Shown here: positions 1,175 to 6,647 of the stretch, piece after piece | Layout of the letters: the number at the start of each line of letters is the position of its first letter | Numbering within the stretch: the first letter of the stretch is position 1 | From: Candidatus Sigynarchaeum calidifontis | Lineage (GTDB): Archaea > Asgardarchaeota > Lokiarchaeia > Sigyniarchaeales > Sigyniarchaeaceae | Reading direction: 5' to 3' | DNA length: 20,963 bases | Assembly (NCBI GenBank): GCA_030587475.2 | Contig: JAUQYZ020000103.1 | Location: 1 to 20,963 of the forward strand | Notes under the pieces: generated by a model | Database searches by the model: none | Told to the model about the DNA's origin: nothing | What the model saw: the letters and a program-made list of their open reading frames with translations, nothing else | Position numbers and translations under genes: made by a program

Positions 1175-2083
1175 TTACAAGCCGCGATACCATTCTGGAC
1201 GGAAATAGCGGCGTGGATCCTGGAGGGCCTTGTCGATCGTCGAAAGGAGGAGGCGTTTATCAGCTGCTAGCACGCCTTTCAACACGACGTAATTCGAAGC
1301 ATGATTTGACCGGAACACGCAATCATGGACGGCCTCGTCGATGTGCTCGATCATGAGCCGGACTTCTTTGACGATCTCGATCTCGTCCATCGGCAAGAAT
1401 TTTCCCTCCGAGCGAGCCTTTTCCAATGTCGTGTGCGGGGGAATCATCAAGGTCAACACGCCGATGTACCACGTTTGGTGGGCGTCCGGACACATGCGAT
1501 TGATCATCCGGGCGCTGGCGATGGCATGGTCGCGCGACTTGCGCTCGTCCTTGCCCGTGATACCGGCGATGATGGTACCGGAAAAAGTGATGCCGTTCCG
1601 CATCAACTTCCGGGCAGCCTCTACGAGCTGGTCAGCCGTGATGTTTTTCTTGATCTGCTTGAGGATCTCGTCGTCGCCGGACTCGAGACCAACGTATGCA
1701 ATGCCGAGACCCGCGTCCGCGAGTTCCTTGAGCTCGGCATCGGTCTTGCCGAGCACGTCTTCCCCGCAAGCGTAGACGCCGACTCGATCGAGGTGCGGGA
1801 AAGTTTTCTTGGCATGGCGAGTTATCTCGATGAGATCGCCGGCCGGCATGCTCAAGGCGTTGCCATCGAGAAAGAAAATGCGTTCGACACCTGGCCCATA
1901 GATTTTACGTGCCGCGTCTATATCTAGCTTGATTTCCTCGACCGGCCGGATAAGATACCTTTTTCCATAATTGCTGATGCAAAACGTGCACCGATGGGTG
2001 CAGCCCTCGGTCGCCTGGATGAGCAAGGATCCGGCTTCGCTTGGCGGGCGGAATACAGGTTCCTTGTAATAGGGACGTTCCAT
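1175..2083 (-). CDS. Radical SAM protein (RPPSE-type, COG1032-like core), about 302 aa
   Basis: CxxxCxxC (CTHRCTFC), N-terminal RPPSEAGSLLIQAT, GLESG, FRSNHASNY. Start moved to ATG 2083 (MERPYY) because the track extension to 2464 overlaps the divergent GTPase. Confidence 0.9.
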   Translation of the reverse strand: MERPYYKEPVFRPPSEAGSLLIQATEGCTHRCTFCISNYGKRYLIRPVEEIKLDIDAARKIYGPGVERIFFLDGNALSMPAGDLIEITRHAKKTFPHLDRVGVYACGEDVLGKTDAELKELADAGLGIAYVGLESGDDEILKQIKKNITADQLVEAARKLMRNGITFSGTIIAGITGKDERKSRDHAIASARMINRMCPDAHQTWYIGVLTLMIPPHTTLEKARSEGKFLPMDEIEIVKEVRLMIEHIDEAVHDCVFRSNHASNYVVLKGVLAADKRLLLSTIDKALQDPRRYFRPEWYRGL

Positions 2084-2125
2084 CAGCTTAAATAATACCA
2101 CACGGTTTAAAATTCGTGAGGCATC
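2084..2125. promoter_or_regulatory. Compact divergent promoter region with two TATA-like boxes
   Basis: 42-bp gap between divergent starts, containing TTAAATA (~2088-2094) and TTTAAAA (~2106-2112). Confidence 0.5.
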
Positions 2126-3043
2126 GTGCCGTTCAAGACTGTCAAGGCATGGGAGCTCATCTGGAATAACATACGCAAGGCCGAGCTCGTTTTGGAGGTA
2201 CTCGACGCGCGGAACCCGCAAGGCACTCGATCGCCCGAGATCGAGGCATTCGTTAGGAAACAAGAGCACCGTCGCCTTGCCATCGTTCTGAACAAGATCG
2301 ATCTCGTTCCGCGAAAGGTCGTGCAAGAGTGGCAAGCCTTGCTTGCAAAGGAGTTTCCAACCATCTGTATCAACGCCCGGCACCCTTCGAACGTGTCGGA
2401 ATTCATCGTTTTCATGAAACGCATATTGAAAGATCTTCCTCTGTGGTCGGATCCAGGGCTGCATTGCAGCGTTCTCGTCGTCGGCTATCCAAACTCGGGT
2501 AAATCAACGCTCATCCAATCACTCACGCGGAACCGGAAGAAACTAGGCATATCGAGCCAAGCAGGGTTCACGAAGGCGATCCAGAAGATCAAGCTCGACG
2601 AGAAAATCTACTTGCTCGACACCCCTGGCGTGATACCGGTTGAAGATTTCGAGGAGGAGATCCGGCAAGCTCTGGATACGGGCTCAATTTCACCGCAAAT
2701 GATCAGTGACAAGGAATCCGTGTGCGATGAGATCATCCGGCGTGTTGGCATACAAGGATTAAACGAGATCTACGGCACGACCGCGGTTGGCAAGGATGAT
2801 TTCATCGAACTTCTTGGAAAAGCACGAGGGTTTCTCGCCAAGGGTGCCACCGTGCGTGAGAATGATGTCTTCGAGCTATTGATCCGTGACTGGCAGAGAA
2901 ATCACATCGCATTCTATTACTCGCCGGATCCGGCAAACCCAACATCGAGGGGGATTCCACATGCCGGAAGGAGCCGGGGGTTTGGCACGCGCGACGTCCA
3001 AGCGGACGACGAACAAGGTACCGATCCCGCCATCGATAAATAA
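2126..3043 (+). CDS. Circularly permuted GTPase, YlqF/RbgA-Nug1/Nog2 family (large ribosomal subunit biogenesis)
   Basis: Motif order G4 NKID, G5 INAR, G1 GYPNSGKS, G2 GFT, G3 DTPG; also DARNP and C-terminal IRDWQR. GTG start. Confidence 0.92.
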   Translation: MPFKTVKAWELIWNNIRKAELVLEVLDARNPQGTRSPEIEAFVRKQEHRRLAIVLNKIDLVPRKVVQEWQALLAKEFPTICINARHPSNVSEFIVFMKRILKDLPLWSDPGLHCSVLVVGYPNSGKSTLIQSLTRNRKKLGISSQAGFTKAIQKIKLDEKIYLLDTPGVIPVEDFEEEIRQALDTGSISPQMISDKESVCDEIIRRVGIQGLNEIYGTTAVGKDDFIELLGKARGFLAKGATVRENDVFELLIRDWQRNHIAFYYSPDPANPTSRGIPHAGRSRGFGTRDVQADDEQGTDPAIDK

Positions 3044-3255: not shown

Positions 3256-4116
3256 ATGATTATGAGCATCGATACGAGCAAGATCATCGACGGAAAGGCA
3301 TGTAGTCTGGAATTGAAGGACAAACTCAAACTGCGCGTCGCGGCGCTGGTGAAAAAAGGAATCGTGCCAGGGCTGGCGACGGTGCTTGTCGGTGACGACC
3401 CCGCATCGAAGGTGTACGTTGCAAACAAGCACAAGGACTGTGCAGAGATTGGTATCAAATCATTCCACGTCAATCTCCCTGCTTCGACGAGCGAGGGAGA
3501 ATTGCTGGAGAAGCTGAAGGATTATAATCATAATCCGGCCATCCATGGTATCCTCGTGCAACTCCCGCTGCCGAAGCATATCGACGTGGAAAACGTCTTG
3601 TCTTGCATAGATCCTCGAAAGGATGTCGATGGCTTCCACCCGCAGAACCTGGGCAACCTCTTTCGGGGCAATGGCAAGCACATCTTCACGTCGTGCACGC
3701 CGGCTGGCATCATCTACTTGCTCAAGTGGGCCAATATTGACTTAAGGGGTTTGGATGTTGTTATTGTAAACCGCTCGAACATCGTGGGCAGGCCCCTCGT
3801 CCCATTGTTCTTGAAAGAAAACGCGACGGTGCAAGTGTGCCACACGGGAACCAGGGATCTGGCCGGTCATTGCCGGCGAGCGGACCTGGTCGTTACAGGA
3901 ACCGGCAAGGCCAAGATGTTTACCCGAGAATATTTCAAGGAAGGCGCGATCGTCGTGGACGTGGGGATGAATCGGACCGAGCAAGGACTTTGCGGGGACG
4001 TGGATTTCGCGAACGTTGTGGACAAGGTTGCCAGGATTACTCCCGTCCCGGGTGGTGTGGGTTTGATAACTAGGGCCATGCTGATGCAGAACACGGTCAT
4101 TGCAGCAGAACTATGA
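3256..4116 (+). CDS. folD: Bifunctional methylenetetrahydrofolate dehydrogenase/cyclohydrolase
   Basis: IIDGK, YVANK (YxxxK), GILVQLPLP, KDVDGFHP, SCTP, DVG, TPVPGGVG. Start could be ATG 3262. Confidence 0.96.
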   Translation: MIMSIDTSKIIDGKACSLELKDKLKLRVAALVKKGIVPGLATVLVGDDPASKVYVANKHKDCAEIGIKSFHVNLPASTSEGELLEKLKDYNHNPAIHGILVQLPLPKHIDVENVLSCIDPRKDVDGFHPQNLGNLFRGNGKHIFTSCTPAGIIYLLKWANIDLRGLDVVIVNRSNIVGRPLVPLFLKENATVQVCHTGTRDLAGHCRRADLVVTGTGKAKMFTREYFKEGAIVVDVGMNRTEQGLCGDVDFANVVDKVARITPVPGGVGLITRAMLMQNTVIAAEL

Positions 4117-4219
4117 CGTCGCCGCACGTGCGAGCTGGTTTAAAATAAAGTTTTTTTATAAGGCAGCCTCATCCCACATGCACGTATCCTTTTCCTCAAC
4201 TCTCCGAAAGTCGAGCGCC

Positions 4220-4963
4220 ATGTCCGAAATCGAGAAGATTTGCATACATTTCAAGGAAACTGGCAAGGTTGGTAATTCTGGGCAAACATTATATTACTGC
4301 GATGCTCGCGATTTCGTCCTCGGCGAGGATGCAAAGATATGCTTCGTTTGTAGTGAATACAAGCCAAGCAAGACTGATTTTGACGATAAAATCCGCCAGA
4401 ACATAATAGATTATCTCAACGGGAAGCGGAAACGAGAAGCAGTTCGCTGGAAGGGTAGCAAGCGGTCCACCAGGTCTTCATCATCACGCAAGTCCCGCGA
4501 TGATTACGACGAAGACGAGGAAGAAGAATCCGAGGCCGAGGAGGGCGAGGAAAGCGAGGAAGCCGAGGATGGTGACGAGGCCGAAGAAGGCGAGGAAGCC
4601 GAGGAGGCTGACGAGGTCGAGGATGCCGACGAAGGCGATGAATTTAGGCATAAGAAAAAGAAATCCGAGAAAAAGCCGGTCGCCAAGAAAAATACCACCA
4701 AAACCACGAAAGCATCGAAGCCAGCCAAGGAGATCGCCCTCGAGAAAGATGATCTTGAACTGTACGAGCTTATCAAGAGCAAGGGTGACGAGGGCATCAT
4801 CCAGATGAATATCAAGGATGAAAGCAAATTACCACCCAGCAAGATTTCCAAGATCATCTTGAAACTCAAGAATGCCGGGCTAATCGTCAAGGAGAATACC
4901 AAGATAAAGGACGCCAAGGGAAAAAGCATCGTCACGAACTTGATCAAGGCGGTAAAGAAATGA
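4220..4963 (+). CDS. Protein with N-terminal Cys4 domain, basic-acidic-basic linker and C-terminal RPC34/TFE-beta-like winged helix (247 aa)
   Basis: ATG 4220 lies downstream of TTTTATAA (~4153-4160). Cys at residues 8, 27, 41 and 44; long D/E tract; LYELIKSKGDEGIIQMNIKDESKLPPSKISKIILKLKNAGLIVKE fits a winged-helix pattern. Confidence 0.8.
   Translation: MSEIEKICIHFKETGKVGNSGQTLYYCDARDFVLGEDAKICFVCSEYKPSKTDFDDKIRQNIIDYLNGKRKREAVRWKGSKRSTRSSSSRKSRDDYDEDEEEESEAEEGEESEEAEDGDEAEEGEEAEEADEVEDADEGDEFRHKKKKSEKKPVAKKNTTKTTKASKPAKEIALEKDDLELYELIKSKGDEGIIQMNIKDESKLPPSKISKIILKLKNAGLIVKENTKIKDAKGKSIVTNLIKAVKK
4535..4642 (+). repeat. Twelve degenerate 9-bp coding repeats encoding (small residue)-[DE]-[DE]
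   Basis: AEE GEE SEE AED GDE AEE GEE AEE ADE VED ADE GDE; units such as GCCGAGGAG and GGCGAGGAA. Confidence 0.85.
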
Positions 4964-4990: not shown

Positions 4991-5023
4991 CGCAGACAGC
5001 TGCGATCGCGCTTGTTTTTTTTT
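4991..5023 (+). terminator. Short hairpin plus T9 run, terminator between convergent genes
   Basis: CGCAG-ACAG-CTGCG (4991-5004), then T9 at 5015-5023. Confidence 0.6.
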
Positions 5024-5041: not shown

Positions 5042-5698
5042 TCAATATTCGGGTACATCGAGATACGTTGCAAGAAACTCGTGGAACGGCGCGAGCTTGA
5101 GCATCGCCTTCACGCGCTCCTTCAAGATCTTGAGATGGCGATAATCCGTGCTGGTAAGAGGCTTGCCTTGTTTTTTCTTCAGCAAGGCTGCAAGCTCTTG
5201 CTTGGTAAGGAGGGGATTGTCGGGGTGGAGTGAGTCATGCTGTTTCGCCTCCTTGATGAAATCAGCGATGTTGGTGAATTTTGGCACGCCTTTGTCGCTT
5301 TCTGATGGCGGCATGAGCGAACGATCGAGCAAGACGAGATTGGCGATCATTTGCTTCGCTGTCTCTATGTCTCCCCGCAAGTACGTGCGATTCCGGATCC
5401 AATCGGCGAATCTTTCGAATGCAGTGACAAAATCCTCGCTTGGTGGAATGTCCCCGGCTGGTTTGGGTACCTTGAGCCGTTGTTGCGCTGGCACATGGGT
5501 CAAGTTCTTCTCGTCGAGCAACCGCTTGAGCAAAGCGATCTTCATGCGGTCTGGCATCGGCGCCGACTCGACCATCGGCGTTGATTCATCGGGTTCGCCG
5601 GCATCGCTTGCCTTCTCTTGCGCAGGTGGCATTTTCTTCGCTTTGTGGCCCGCCTTTAAGAATTCATCGAGCGACATCGTGTCCAATCTCCGAGCCAT
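5042..5698 (-). CDS. Hypothetical protein (218 aa), helical with low-complexity linkers
   Basis: Fills the gap between its neighbours; natural composition; ordered block FERFADWIRNRTYLRGDIETAKQMIANL. No family recognised. Confidence 0.75.
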   Translation of the reverse strand: MARRLDTMSLDEFLKAGHKAKKMPPAQEKASDAGEPDESTPMVESAPMPDRMKIALLKRLLDEKNLTHVPAQQRLKVPKPAGDIPPSEDFVTAFERFADWIRNRTYLRGDIETAKQMIANLVLLDRSLMPPSESDKGVPKFTNIADFIKEAKQHDSLHPDNPLLTKQELAALLKKKQGKPLTSTDYRHLKILKERVKAMLKLAPFHEFLATYLDVPEY

Positions 5699-5753: not shown

Positions 5754-6647
5754 TTAAATGCTCCTCCAATGAGCAAGGATCGCCGAGCCGACGGGCACGT
5801 TGAAGTAAGCCTCCATCACGGCACACTTCGCGAGGAGGCAAAAAAACAGGTTATCCGTCTTGGGACGATCCGACAGCGCTTCAAAATTGCCTTGCCCCTT
5901 GGAAATGATGATATCAGCCGCTTTGTACGCGTGGACGAGCTCTGGGGATGCTTCATCAAGGATCAACCCTGGAGATTGGGTACCCTCGATGATCGTTGCG
6001 ATATTATCGATGCCGGCAGCCTTTGCATCGTCAATAGTTGCATCGTTGATGATAGGGCCGGCACGAACCGAAAAGAACACGTTGATGCGGAACGAGCGCG
6101 TTATCTCTTCCAAGAAGATCTTGTCAAAAAGAATCTCTCCTGCATTGTCGGCAATGTAGAGTAACGTCCTGGCATTTCCAAGCTCGGCTTTTAACGAGTC
6201 GAAATGGTCGACAGCCAACCGTAGCGAATCGATCTCGGCCTGGAGATCAAAATCGTGATGTGTTCCAAGATCCATCACGTTCCCAGCTATTGCAATGACC
6301 GCGGCTGTCTTGAGCCGGTCGCTGCTGCCCGCTACTTTTGCTTTCGCGACGGGATAGAGCCGCCTGGCTTCATCATTCAAGCGCTGCTTGGCATCCTTGA
6401 ACATGTCCGGTTCTCCCAAGTATTCCGCAACGAGCGCGTACACGTCGCGGCCGGTCTTCGCGGGTAATTGTTCCATGACCCGGTCATCCCTCAAAATGCC
6501 CATGACGTGATTCAGCAAGCCTTTCTTGTCCATTCGAGAGAGCCGCCGGCCATTCATGTCCACGACTCGCAGTACTTGATTCAGCAAGCACGGGATGCAA
6601 TTTACGTGAAATTTCAAGCGGGACACCCATGAACCTATGGCGGACAT
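5754..6647 (-). CDS. DUF89/ARMT1-like damage-control metal-dependent phosphatase
   Basis: N-terminal CIPC, GNVMDLG, DNAGEILFD, PIINDAT, KGQGNFEAL, AKC. Alternative start TTG at 6617. Confidence 0.92.
   Translation of the reverse strand: MSAIGSWVSRLKFHVNCIPCLLNQVLRVVDMNGRRLSRMDKKGLLNHVMGILRDDRVMEQLPAKTGRDVYALVAEYLGEPDMFKDAKQRLNDEARRLYPVAKAKVAGSSDRLKTAAVIAIAGNVMDLGTHHDFDLQAEIDSLRLAVDHFDSLKAELGNARTLLYIADNAGEILFDKIFLEEITRSFRINVFFSVRAGPIINDATIDDAKAAGIDNIATIIEGTQSPGLILDEASPELVHAYKAADIIISKGQGNFEALSDRPKTDNLFFCLLAKCAVMEAYFNVPVGSAILAHWRSI

Follow-up and report, generated by a model that had tools for sequence, protein, structure and literature searches.

We analysed a stretch of 20,963 nucleotides from Candidatus Sigynarchaeum calidifontis (contig JAUQYZ020000103.1), hereafter the window, in which a coding sequence on the plus strand (4220..4963) encodes a protein of 247 amino acids plus stop (P0001). 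This protein combines an N-terminal four-cysteine (Cys4) head (residues 1-70; 4220..4429, plus strand), a charge-blocked linker and a C-terminal winged helix (WH; residues 171-247; 4730..4960, plus strand), the latter delimited by AlphaFold2, Pfam and a profile search of the PDB. Our comparisons indicate that it is the WH form of a single-copy protein family that is specific to the order containing the cultivated Loki-type Asgard archaea. A protein identical to it is on record in the collection that we searched. The Cys4/acidic/WH protein is the product of a genuine gene and its pattern is not due to chance, since the four cysteines are kept in 40/40 relatives and since the head is matched in 142 genomes.

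The head is beta-rich, with a helix at residues 56-66, and it holds the only four cysteines of the protein: C8, C27, C41 and C44, which translation of 4220-4963 places in the spacing C-x18-C-x13-C-x2-C that an earlier, sequence-only annotation of this DNA (the original prediction) had described. That annotation had made the conservation of these residues a point to verify, and all four turned out to be invariant in the 40 aligned relatives, where L24, R30 and V43 are nearly invariant as well; H10 is invariant in the closer 13 sequences only. A word-index protein search gave 10 matches at E ≤0.01 among 1717 candidates, of which the full-length ones (212-285 amino acids) kept the entire architecture and all four cysteines. 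Weak matches in other families of the order spanned the N-terminal ~50 residues only. When a head profile made from 13 sequences was compared with 1.84 billion representative proteins, it found 38 at E ≤0.001 and 26 at E ≤1e-10; P0041, P0042 and P0050 were excluded as probable repeat proteins, with many repeats that align with profile positions 15-39 only.

Among 400 genomes of the phylum, the same profile found matches in 142, all within the window's order (142/154, the window's own genome included), with E values from 1e-13 to 1e-37, and in 0/246 genomes of the phylum outside that order. By family of the order, the head was found in 3/3, 1/1, 14/14 and 123/135 genomes, with exactly one copy per genome among the matches listed, and the 12 genomes of the order that gave no match have a completeness of 61-95%. 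Pfam and NCBIfam contained no match for the head, and a profile search of the PDB returned nothing significant for it (best E 1.2, reflecting a weak rubredoxin-knuckle likeness of the CxxC). We propose that the Cys4 head is an undescribed metal-binding domain, predicted to bind zinc, or else iron or an iron-sulfur (Fe-S) cluster. Our literature searches found no paper describing the Cys4-acidic-WH family, in agreement with the view of the original prediction that this is an undescribed factor, and the names that its members carry in databases are 'hypothetical protein', 'helix-turn-helix transcriptional regulator' (NCBI, one member) and the spurious 'CobT'.

Exchange of the C-terminal module and the acidic linker

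Proteins from two sister families share this head, its C-x18-C-x13-C-x2-C spacing unchanged, and continue with an acidic stretch and then one or two C-x2-C-x9-H-x3-C (CCHC) fingers, a motif that does not occur in the window protein. We collected 64 distinct relatives, cut from loci or taken from stored proteins, and sorted them by their ends: there are two CCHC fingers in 24, a single finger in 19, a WH in 16 (a tally that includes P0025 and also L003, whose WH was seen by Pfam) and, in 5 that are mostly fragments, an end that we did not recognise. The WH forms fall into one group (support 99/97) when a tree is built from the heads; this tree has three groups only, with long branches meeting, and does not tell whether the WH or the finger is the ancestral end. 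The CCHC proteins share with the window protein the head, the acidic linker and a position next to a radical S-adenosylmethionine (rSAM) gene, and they are true orthologues, but they carry fingers where the window protein has a WH. Judging from these alignments, a binding module (WH versus CCHC fingers) has been swapped on a conserved scaffold of head and acidic linker, of which this family would be a clean example. The fingers of the sister families equal in spacing that of C17orf80/MTNAP1, a human mitochondrial nucleoid protein whose finger is likewise of the form C-x2-C-x9-H-x3-C (PMC10445727). In the ESM Atlas, a cluster of the orthologues (107 members, Promethearchaeota) is labelled PF28519 MTNAP1_ZnF, a label that comes from the Atlas only.

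The linker of the window protein consists of the three charge blocks that had been noticed from the sequence, and its composition bears them out with net charges of +11, -34 and +12. The basic Ser/Arg patch (residues 68-93; 4421..4498, plus strand) has 12 K/R and 1 D/E, and aligned family members retain its GKRKR..RW core. It is followed by the acidic low-complexity tract (residues 94-141; 4499..4642, plus strand), in which 34/48 residues are D/E and none is K/R, and then by the Lys-rich patch (residues 143-170; 4646..4729, plus strand), which has 13 K/R and is rich in K/A/P in relatives. AlphaFold2 gives the linker a predicted local distance difference test (pLDDT) score below 50. Aromatic residues mark both ends of the acidic tract, with DDYDE at its start (94-98) and F142 just after it, making DEF at 140-142.

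A 30-residue segment with at least 50% D/E was found in 62/64 relatives. An acidic-aromatic pentamer lies 46-52 residues past the CxxC in 24/24 two-finger forms and in 8/14 WH rows, the window being counted twice among these rows and L003 and P0025 not being among them; in the sister family, it reads DEFEE at a distance that matches the DDYDE of the window protein. At the DNA level, a degenerate tandem repeat with a 9-bp (A-E-E) unit (4535-4642) encodes the acidic tract, and a fragment from a near-identical strain (P0005) has one additional 12-residue (36-bp) unit in this tract. The length of the tract is therefore polymorphic, which fits repeat slippage, and the family alignment shows that the length of the linker also differs between relatives. 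Matches of the protein to TFIIF-alpha, CDC45, Nop14 and a DNA polymerase were rejected as low-complexity artefacts of the acidic tract, and a similar artefact probably explains why JGI names P0002 'CobT'.

The winged helix and the TFE-beta question

The C-terminal WH that had been proposed for the protein was recovered by two routes. AlphaFold2 modelled residues ~172-247 as three helices (176-191, 195-201 and 206-218) and a two-strand wing (222-230 and 236-244) with pLDDT block means of 79-90, and Pfam PF04182 (B-block_TFIIIC; cut-off 22 bits) gave the whole protein a score of 29.1 bits (E 1.1e-6), which rose to 32.2 bits when the WH was searched by itself. Because PF04182 also matches in 7/14 control genomes, E. 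coli and B. subtilis included, this match shows a WH and not a kinship with TFIIIC. Such a kinship was rejected: the match is above its cut-off yet unspecific, and the protein has a single WH and not the multi-WH layout of tau138. On the window protein, RPA_C and RNA_pol_Rpc34 remained below their Pfam cut-offs, and PF05158 aligned with residues 174-222 only, giving 19 bits on the WH against a cut-off of 28.4. When the 11 WHs of our family alignment were searched one by one in Pfam, PF04182 matched 11, PF05158 matched 9 (below its cut-off), DUF7343 matched 9, RPA_C matched 7 and MarR_2, counted at E ≤0.01, matched 6; the window's own WH has no MarR_2 match at that threshold.

Compared with the PDB as a profile, the family WH alignment had its top matches in the second WH (WH2) of human RPC39/RPC6 (2dk5, E 2.1e-6; 7a6h_P residues 89-151, E 5e-6), followed by Lrs14-like proteins (1.3e-5), ROK (8.5e-5), yeast C34 (5fj8_P, 2.3e-4) and MarR (7e-4). 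Foldseek found nothing at E ≤0.001 with the WH (best E 2.7e-3), and its top rows were a mix of ArsR, RPC39, TFIIIC, AbfR2, TFIIE and MarR. The resemblance to RPC34/RPC39 WH2 that the original prediction had drawn from the residue pattern thus holds in so far as 2dk5 is the closest solved structure by sequence, but Lrs14-like proteins come close behind and Foldseek does not discriminate; the likeness to RPC34 WH2 appears to be genuine yet slight, and it does not separate this WH from those of ordinary archaeal regulators. With MarR and Lrs14 regulators, the window protein shares the WH fold and weak sequence matches, but it is devoid of the flanking dimerisation helices: none of the MarR type was seen in the WH model, where the wing ends the protein and a disordered Lys-rich stretch comes before the first helix. 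It also differs from these regulators by its extra Cys4 head, by its acidic linker and by being single-copy across the order. A 394-amino-acid protein from an ENA metagenome (P0010) is a TPR protein that ends in two tandem WHs with 55% identity to the window WH; this WH subtype therefore occurs in other architectures too.

The protein had first been read as a TFE-beta/RPC34-like factor in reversed order. TFE-beta/RPC34 proteins (PF05158) and the window protein do have in common that a four-Cys module and a WH are joined in one small protein, with RPC39 WH2 as the closest solved WH, but in the window protein the domain order is reversed and the Cys module is unrelated in spacing and in sequence. 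The Fe-S cysteines of Sulfolobus TFE-beta are C92, C95, C101 and C112, in other words CxxCx5Cx10C (PMC4495717), and four Asgard proteins matched by PF05158 (Fe-S region) have a WH and then CxxCx5Cx10C. Using a profile built from these four proteins, hhalign gave a probability of 0.4% for the Cys4 head and of 0.08% for the WH, so that the WH has no profile link to Asgard TFE-beta. The charge-blocked linker of 100 residues is found in the window protein only and not in TFE-beta.

The Asgard TFE-beta profile also matched 49/61 genomes of the order. In the window's genome, which does contain the separate TFE-beta candidate whose presence had been an open point, the match is a 141-amino-acid frame on contig C97 with the WH first and the cysteines last (CFFCNKLETCGEDSIINYYNC), at E 1e-3 only; in another genome of the window's family, the match reached E 8.4e-7. 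TFE-alpha is separately encoded in the window's genome. PF05158 alone gave nothing in the window's genome, in the window's family or in the one-finger family because this eukaryote-built model is weak on these proteins, as the candidates found with the Asgard profile indicate; the order consequently has ordinary TFE-beta candidates that PF05158 misses. A complementary distribution of the Cys4 protein and TFE-beta was rejected on the same grounds, that is, the weakness of PF05158 and the candidates in 49/61 genomes. The reversed TFE-beta was rejected on the Cys spacing, on the two null hhalign comparisons and on the separate TFE-beta candidate.

Three observations on TFE-beta-like proteins in the phylum were made along the way. 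In the two-finger family, the TFE-beta-like protein at L063:1285-1926 (plus strand) consists of a CCHC finger, a WH and then CLICPFIARCNETSNDQFNPHIC. Those of the one-finger family (L070, L062 and L067) have a long Lys-rich tail at their start. A family of the phylum has many stand-alone WH proteins of ~85 amino acids that correspond to the WH2 part of PF05158 only, often two per genome; the corresponding PF05158 tally of 81/89 genomes lumps three families, and several of its matches have in-frame stop codons.

Neighbouring genes, distant relatives and proposed function

An rSAM gene lies upstream of the Cys4 gene (1175..2083, minus strand), as part of its context and not of the protein. Its open frame could encode 429 amino acids (1175-2464, minus strand) and then overlaps a GTPase frame (2126-3043, plus strand) by ~340 nucleotides; because its orthologues have ~305 amino acids, the start is probably the ATG at 2083 (MERPYYKEPVFRPPSE). 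In the window, a YlqF-type GTPase gene and folD stand between the rSAM gene and the Cys4 gene, the former being ~2 kb upstream. In the two sister families, an rSAM orthologue adjoins the Cys4 gene or lies within ~4 kb of it in 15/15 loci. The two-finger family shows, in 8/8 loci, a row of a JAMM/MPN-TPR gene (JAB domain by Pfam), the Cys4-finger gene and an rSAM gene of ~305 amino acids, which are co-directional and tightly spaced or overlapping, with some stop/start overlaps (L050-L057, for example L052:3530-6858, minus strand); this row is a possible operon. In the one-finger family, the rSAM gene is within ~4 kb in 7/7 loci and adjacent in 4. In the window's own family, folD directly precedes the Cys4 gene in 4/4 loci, and one genome has no rSAM gene within 10 kb of the Cys4 gene.

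The rSAM family itself was detected in 240/400 genomes of the phylum at E 1e-40. It is thus far wider than the Cys4 gene and no dependence is shown by this linkage; in addition, 3/3 rSAM loci inspected outside the order have no Cys4 or MPN neighbour. The linkage between the Cys4 and rSAM genes is specific to the order and could be functional or merely inherited. The presence of folD beside the gene in the window, and of mch/fwd in Bathyarchaeia (see below), suggests a link with folD or one-carbon metabolism; we rejected this link, as it is best read as coincidence plus insertion.

More distant relatives came from the library-wide search with the head profile. P0043, P0046, P0047 and P0049 (139-204 amino acids) have a WH-like start, a coiled coil and a terminal Cys4 module whose four cysteines all align with those of the head (match E 3e-7 to 4.5e-5); their named copies belong to Bathyarchaeia and are all called hypothetical. 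A metagenome scan gave 6 loci (L071-L076; match at 6001-6612 or shorter), of which 4 were inspected, and in all 4 the gene is found between Mch-like and Fwd-like (fwdC/A/B-type) genes; for L073 only, Pfam assigned the neighbours to MCH, GXGXG, amidohydrolase and molybdopterin oxidoreductase families. These proteins share with the window protein a homologous Cys4 module joined to a WH, but they have the WH first and the Cys4 module last, a coiled coil in the place of the acidic linker and a location in mch/fwd clusters. Their WH is not specifically related to that of the window's family (hhalign 2.3%), and an Atlas search with a Bathyarchaeal protein gave WH-like leads only, below TM 0.4. The Cys4 module is therefore found in both domain orders, each time with a DNA-binding-type domain, and the Bathyarchaeal proteins are candidate regulators of one-carbon (formylmethanofuran/methenyl-H4MPT) genes.

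The reading that we favour, to which we give a probability of about 40%, is that the window protein is a DNA-tethered chromatin factor whose acidic linker may bind histones or other basic partners, or may gate the protein's own DNA binding, each functional step being one that we infer. The WH, which matches DNA-binding WH families in Pfam, Foldseek and PDB profile searches, would tether the protein to DNA together with the flanking Lys-rich patches. The acidic tract of ~50 residues would grip basic partners, most plausibly abundant Lys-tailed histones, or would alternatively fold back onto the basic patches and the WH to gate DNA binding. The metal-bound Cys4 head would be the constant end that binds a partner or senses a signal. 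Overall, the protein would behave as a DNA-anchored chromatin adaptor or chaperone-like factor and not as a basal initiation factor. With one copy in 142/154 genomes of the order and none in 246 genomes elsewhere, a core lineage-specific function is likelier than that of a local regulator.

Acidic domains with histone-chaperone activity are known in eukaryotes (APLF, Npm2/Nap1), as are DNA-binding proteins with acidic disordered regions (HMGB1, SSRP1, UBF). The window protein is like them in that a DNA or chromatin module is combined with a long acidic stretch containing aromatic residues in an acidic context, and in the layout of its charge blocks, a likeness of the 'works like' kind only, but it has no sequence or domain homology to proteins of the APLF/Npm2/HMGB1 type, and its histone binding is predicted. 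A 'DEF/Y' histone-binding motif belongs to the same background, with no paper using that phrase being found in our searches, and archaeal histones are not H2A-H2B. DNA-binding proteins with an acidic disordered region are known; what this family adds is an undescribed Cys4 domain. The window's genome has 7 histone-fold matches. For cultivated Loki strains, a 2026 preprint (10.64898/2026.07.02.735847) reports that histones make up 3.8-20.8% of the total protein; its Discussion places the chaperone stabilisation of core histones after the archaeal stage.

Several points weigh against a chromatin factor. DNA binding, histone binding and the identity of the metal are all predicted. The model of the head is poor (pLDDT 59.9 with AlphaFold2 and 40 sequences, a run with 7 sequences being poor as well), and a VIA-align fold comparison and an Atlas feature search with it had no usable match, a result that, with such a model, says nothing on the novelty of the fold. 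The acidic-aromatic pentamer is missing in 18/64 relatives. Slippage easily yields acidic low-complexity tracts, which need not bind anything specifically. Finally, the neighbourhood of JAMM/MPN and rSAM genes points to a role other than chromatin, and the Bathyarchaeal relatives look like local regulators.

Among the rival explanations, one is that of an ordinary one-component regulator of transcription, in which the WH would read a specific operator and the Cys4 head would sense metal or redox state; we hold it to be unlikely. In its favour, the WH profile also matches Lrs14-like (1.3e-5), ROK (8.5e-5) and MarR (7e-4) proteins, MarR_2 is found on 6/11 family WHs, NCBI names one member a 'helix-turn-helix transcriptional regulator' and the Bathyarchaeal genes for Cys4 plus WH proteins sit between mch and fwd-type genes in 4/4 inspected loci. 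A conserved operator is, however, hard to reconcile with an exchange of the WH for CCHC fingers in which the rest of the protein is kept. Nearly all genomes of the order have a single copy without paralogue expansion, the model is devoid of MarR-type dimerisation helices and an acidic tract of 48 residues is unusual for such proteins. As for folD, which directly precedes the gene in 4/4 loci of the window's family and might also speak for a regulator, its adjacency looks as if the GTPase gene and folD had been inserted between the rSAM and Cys4 genes. An accessory of the rSAM and/or JAMM/MPN enzymes, with the head acting as a rubredoxin-like Fe(Cys)4 electron carrier or the protein as a substrate or scaffold, appears still less probable to us. 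Such a carrier would work in the manner of Dph3/Kti11, a small Cys4 domain that has an acidic tail. The ordered row in 8/8 two-finger loci, the rSAM gene within ~4 kb in 7/7 one-finger loci and ~2 kb upstream in the window, and the CxxC knuckle, whose rubredoxin likeness (E 1.2) is not significant, argue for an accessory, but under this explanation the WH, the fingers and the Lys-rich patches would have no role. Moreover, the rSAM gene extends far beyond the Cys4 gene (240/400 genomes) and was free of Cys4 or MPN neighbours at each of the 3 loci beyond the order that we inspected; in the window's family, one genome has no rSAM gene within 10 kb of the Cys4 gene, and the Bathyarchaeal relatives are not beside rSAM genes.

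The remaining explanation, a permuted or derived TFE-beta/RPC34 basal factor with the Cys4 head as an Fe-S domain that would dock on TFE-alpha and the RNA polymerase clamp, is largely refuted and we consider it highly improbable. In its favour, the WH has its closest solved relatives by sequence in RPC39/RPC6 WH2, PF05158 matches 9/11 family WHs below its cut-off, the four cysteines of the head are invariant and the TFE-beta-like protein of the two-finger family at L063 itself opens with the same type of CCHC finger. Yet the Cys spacing is unlike CxxCx5Cx10C, PF05158 leaves the head untouched, both hhalign comparisons were null (head 0.4%, WH 0.08%), separate candidates with a WH and then cysteines exist in 49/61 genomes of the order, this genome included, and TFE-alpha is present separately.

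The window's order includes the cultivated Loki-type Asgard archaea, which are models for the archaeal ancestor of eukaryotes and whose cells are full of tailed histones according to the preprint (10.64898/2026.07.02.735847), in which we found no histone-handling factor named for them. A more speculative idea, improbable in our eyes, sees in this family a forerunner, or an analogue, among prokaryotes of the eukaryotic acidic histone chaperones: a DNA-anchored factor universal in the Loki-type order, the acidic-aromatic linker of which would handle abundant Lys-tailed Asgard histones and the new metal-binding head of which would couple it to a JAMM/ubiquitin-like or rSAM pathway. Being single-copy in almost all genomes of the order and absent from the other sampled genomes of the phylum, the Cys4 gene is a candidate player in chromatin or transcription biology that defines its lineage, and it brings together an uncharacterised metal-binding domain, a eukaryotic-style acidic linker and an exchangeable DNA-binding end.

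Elements flanking the Cys4 gene

The true start of the Cys4 gene is the ATG at 4220 and not the upstream TTG at 4100, since orthologues likewise begin with MSEIEK and since a TATA-like stretch sits inside the longer TTG frame. This AT-rich TATA/BRE-like (B recognition element) stretch (4139..4161, plus strand) lies 59-81 nucleotides 5' of the ATG, between the stop of folD (4116) and the ATG, and its sequence suggests a putative archaeal promoter, for which a bacterial-type promoter scan is inapplicable. Downstream, a run of nine T (5015..5023, plus strand) is found 52 nucleotides 3' of the stop, between convergent genes, and may act as an archaeal oligo-T terminator. The convergent gene (5042-5698, minus strand) encodes a protein of 218 amino acids that has no match in Pfam or NCBIfam and that occupies the same place in the genus and in the family, with 77% identity in the genus and 36% in the family.

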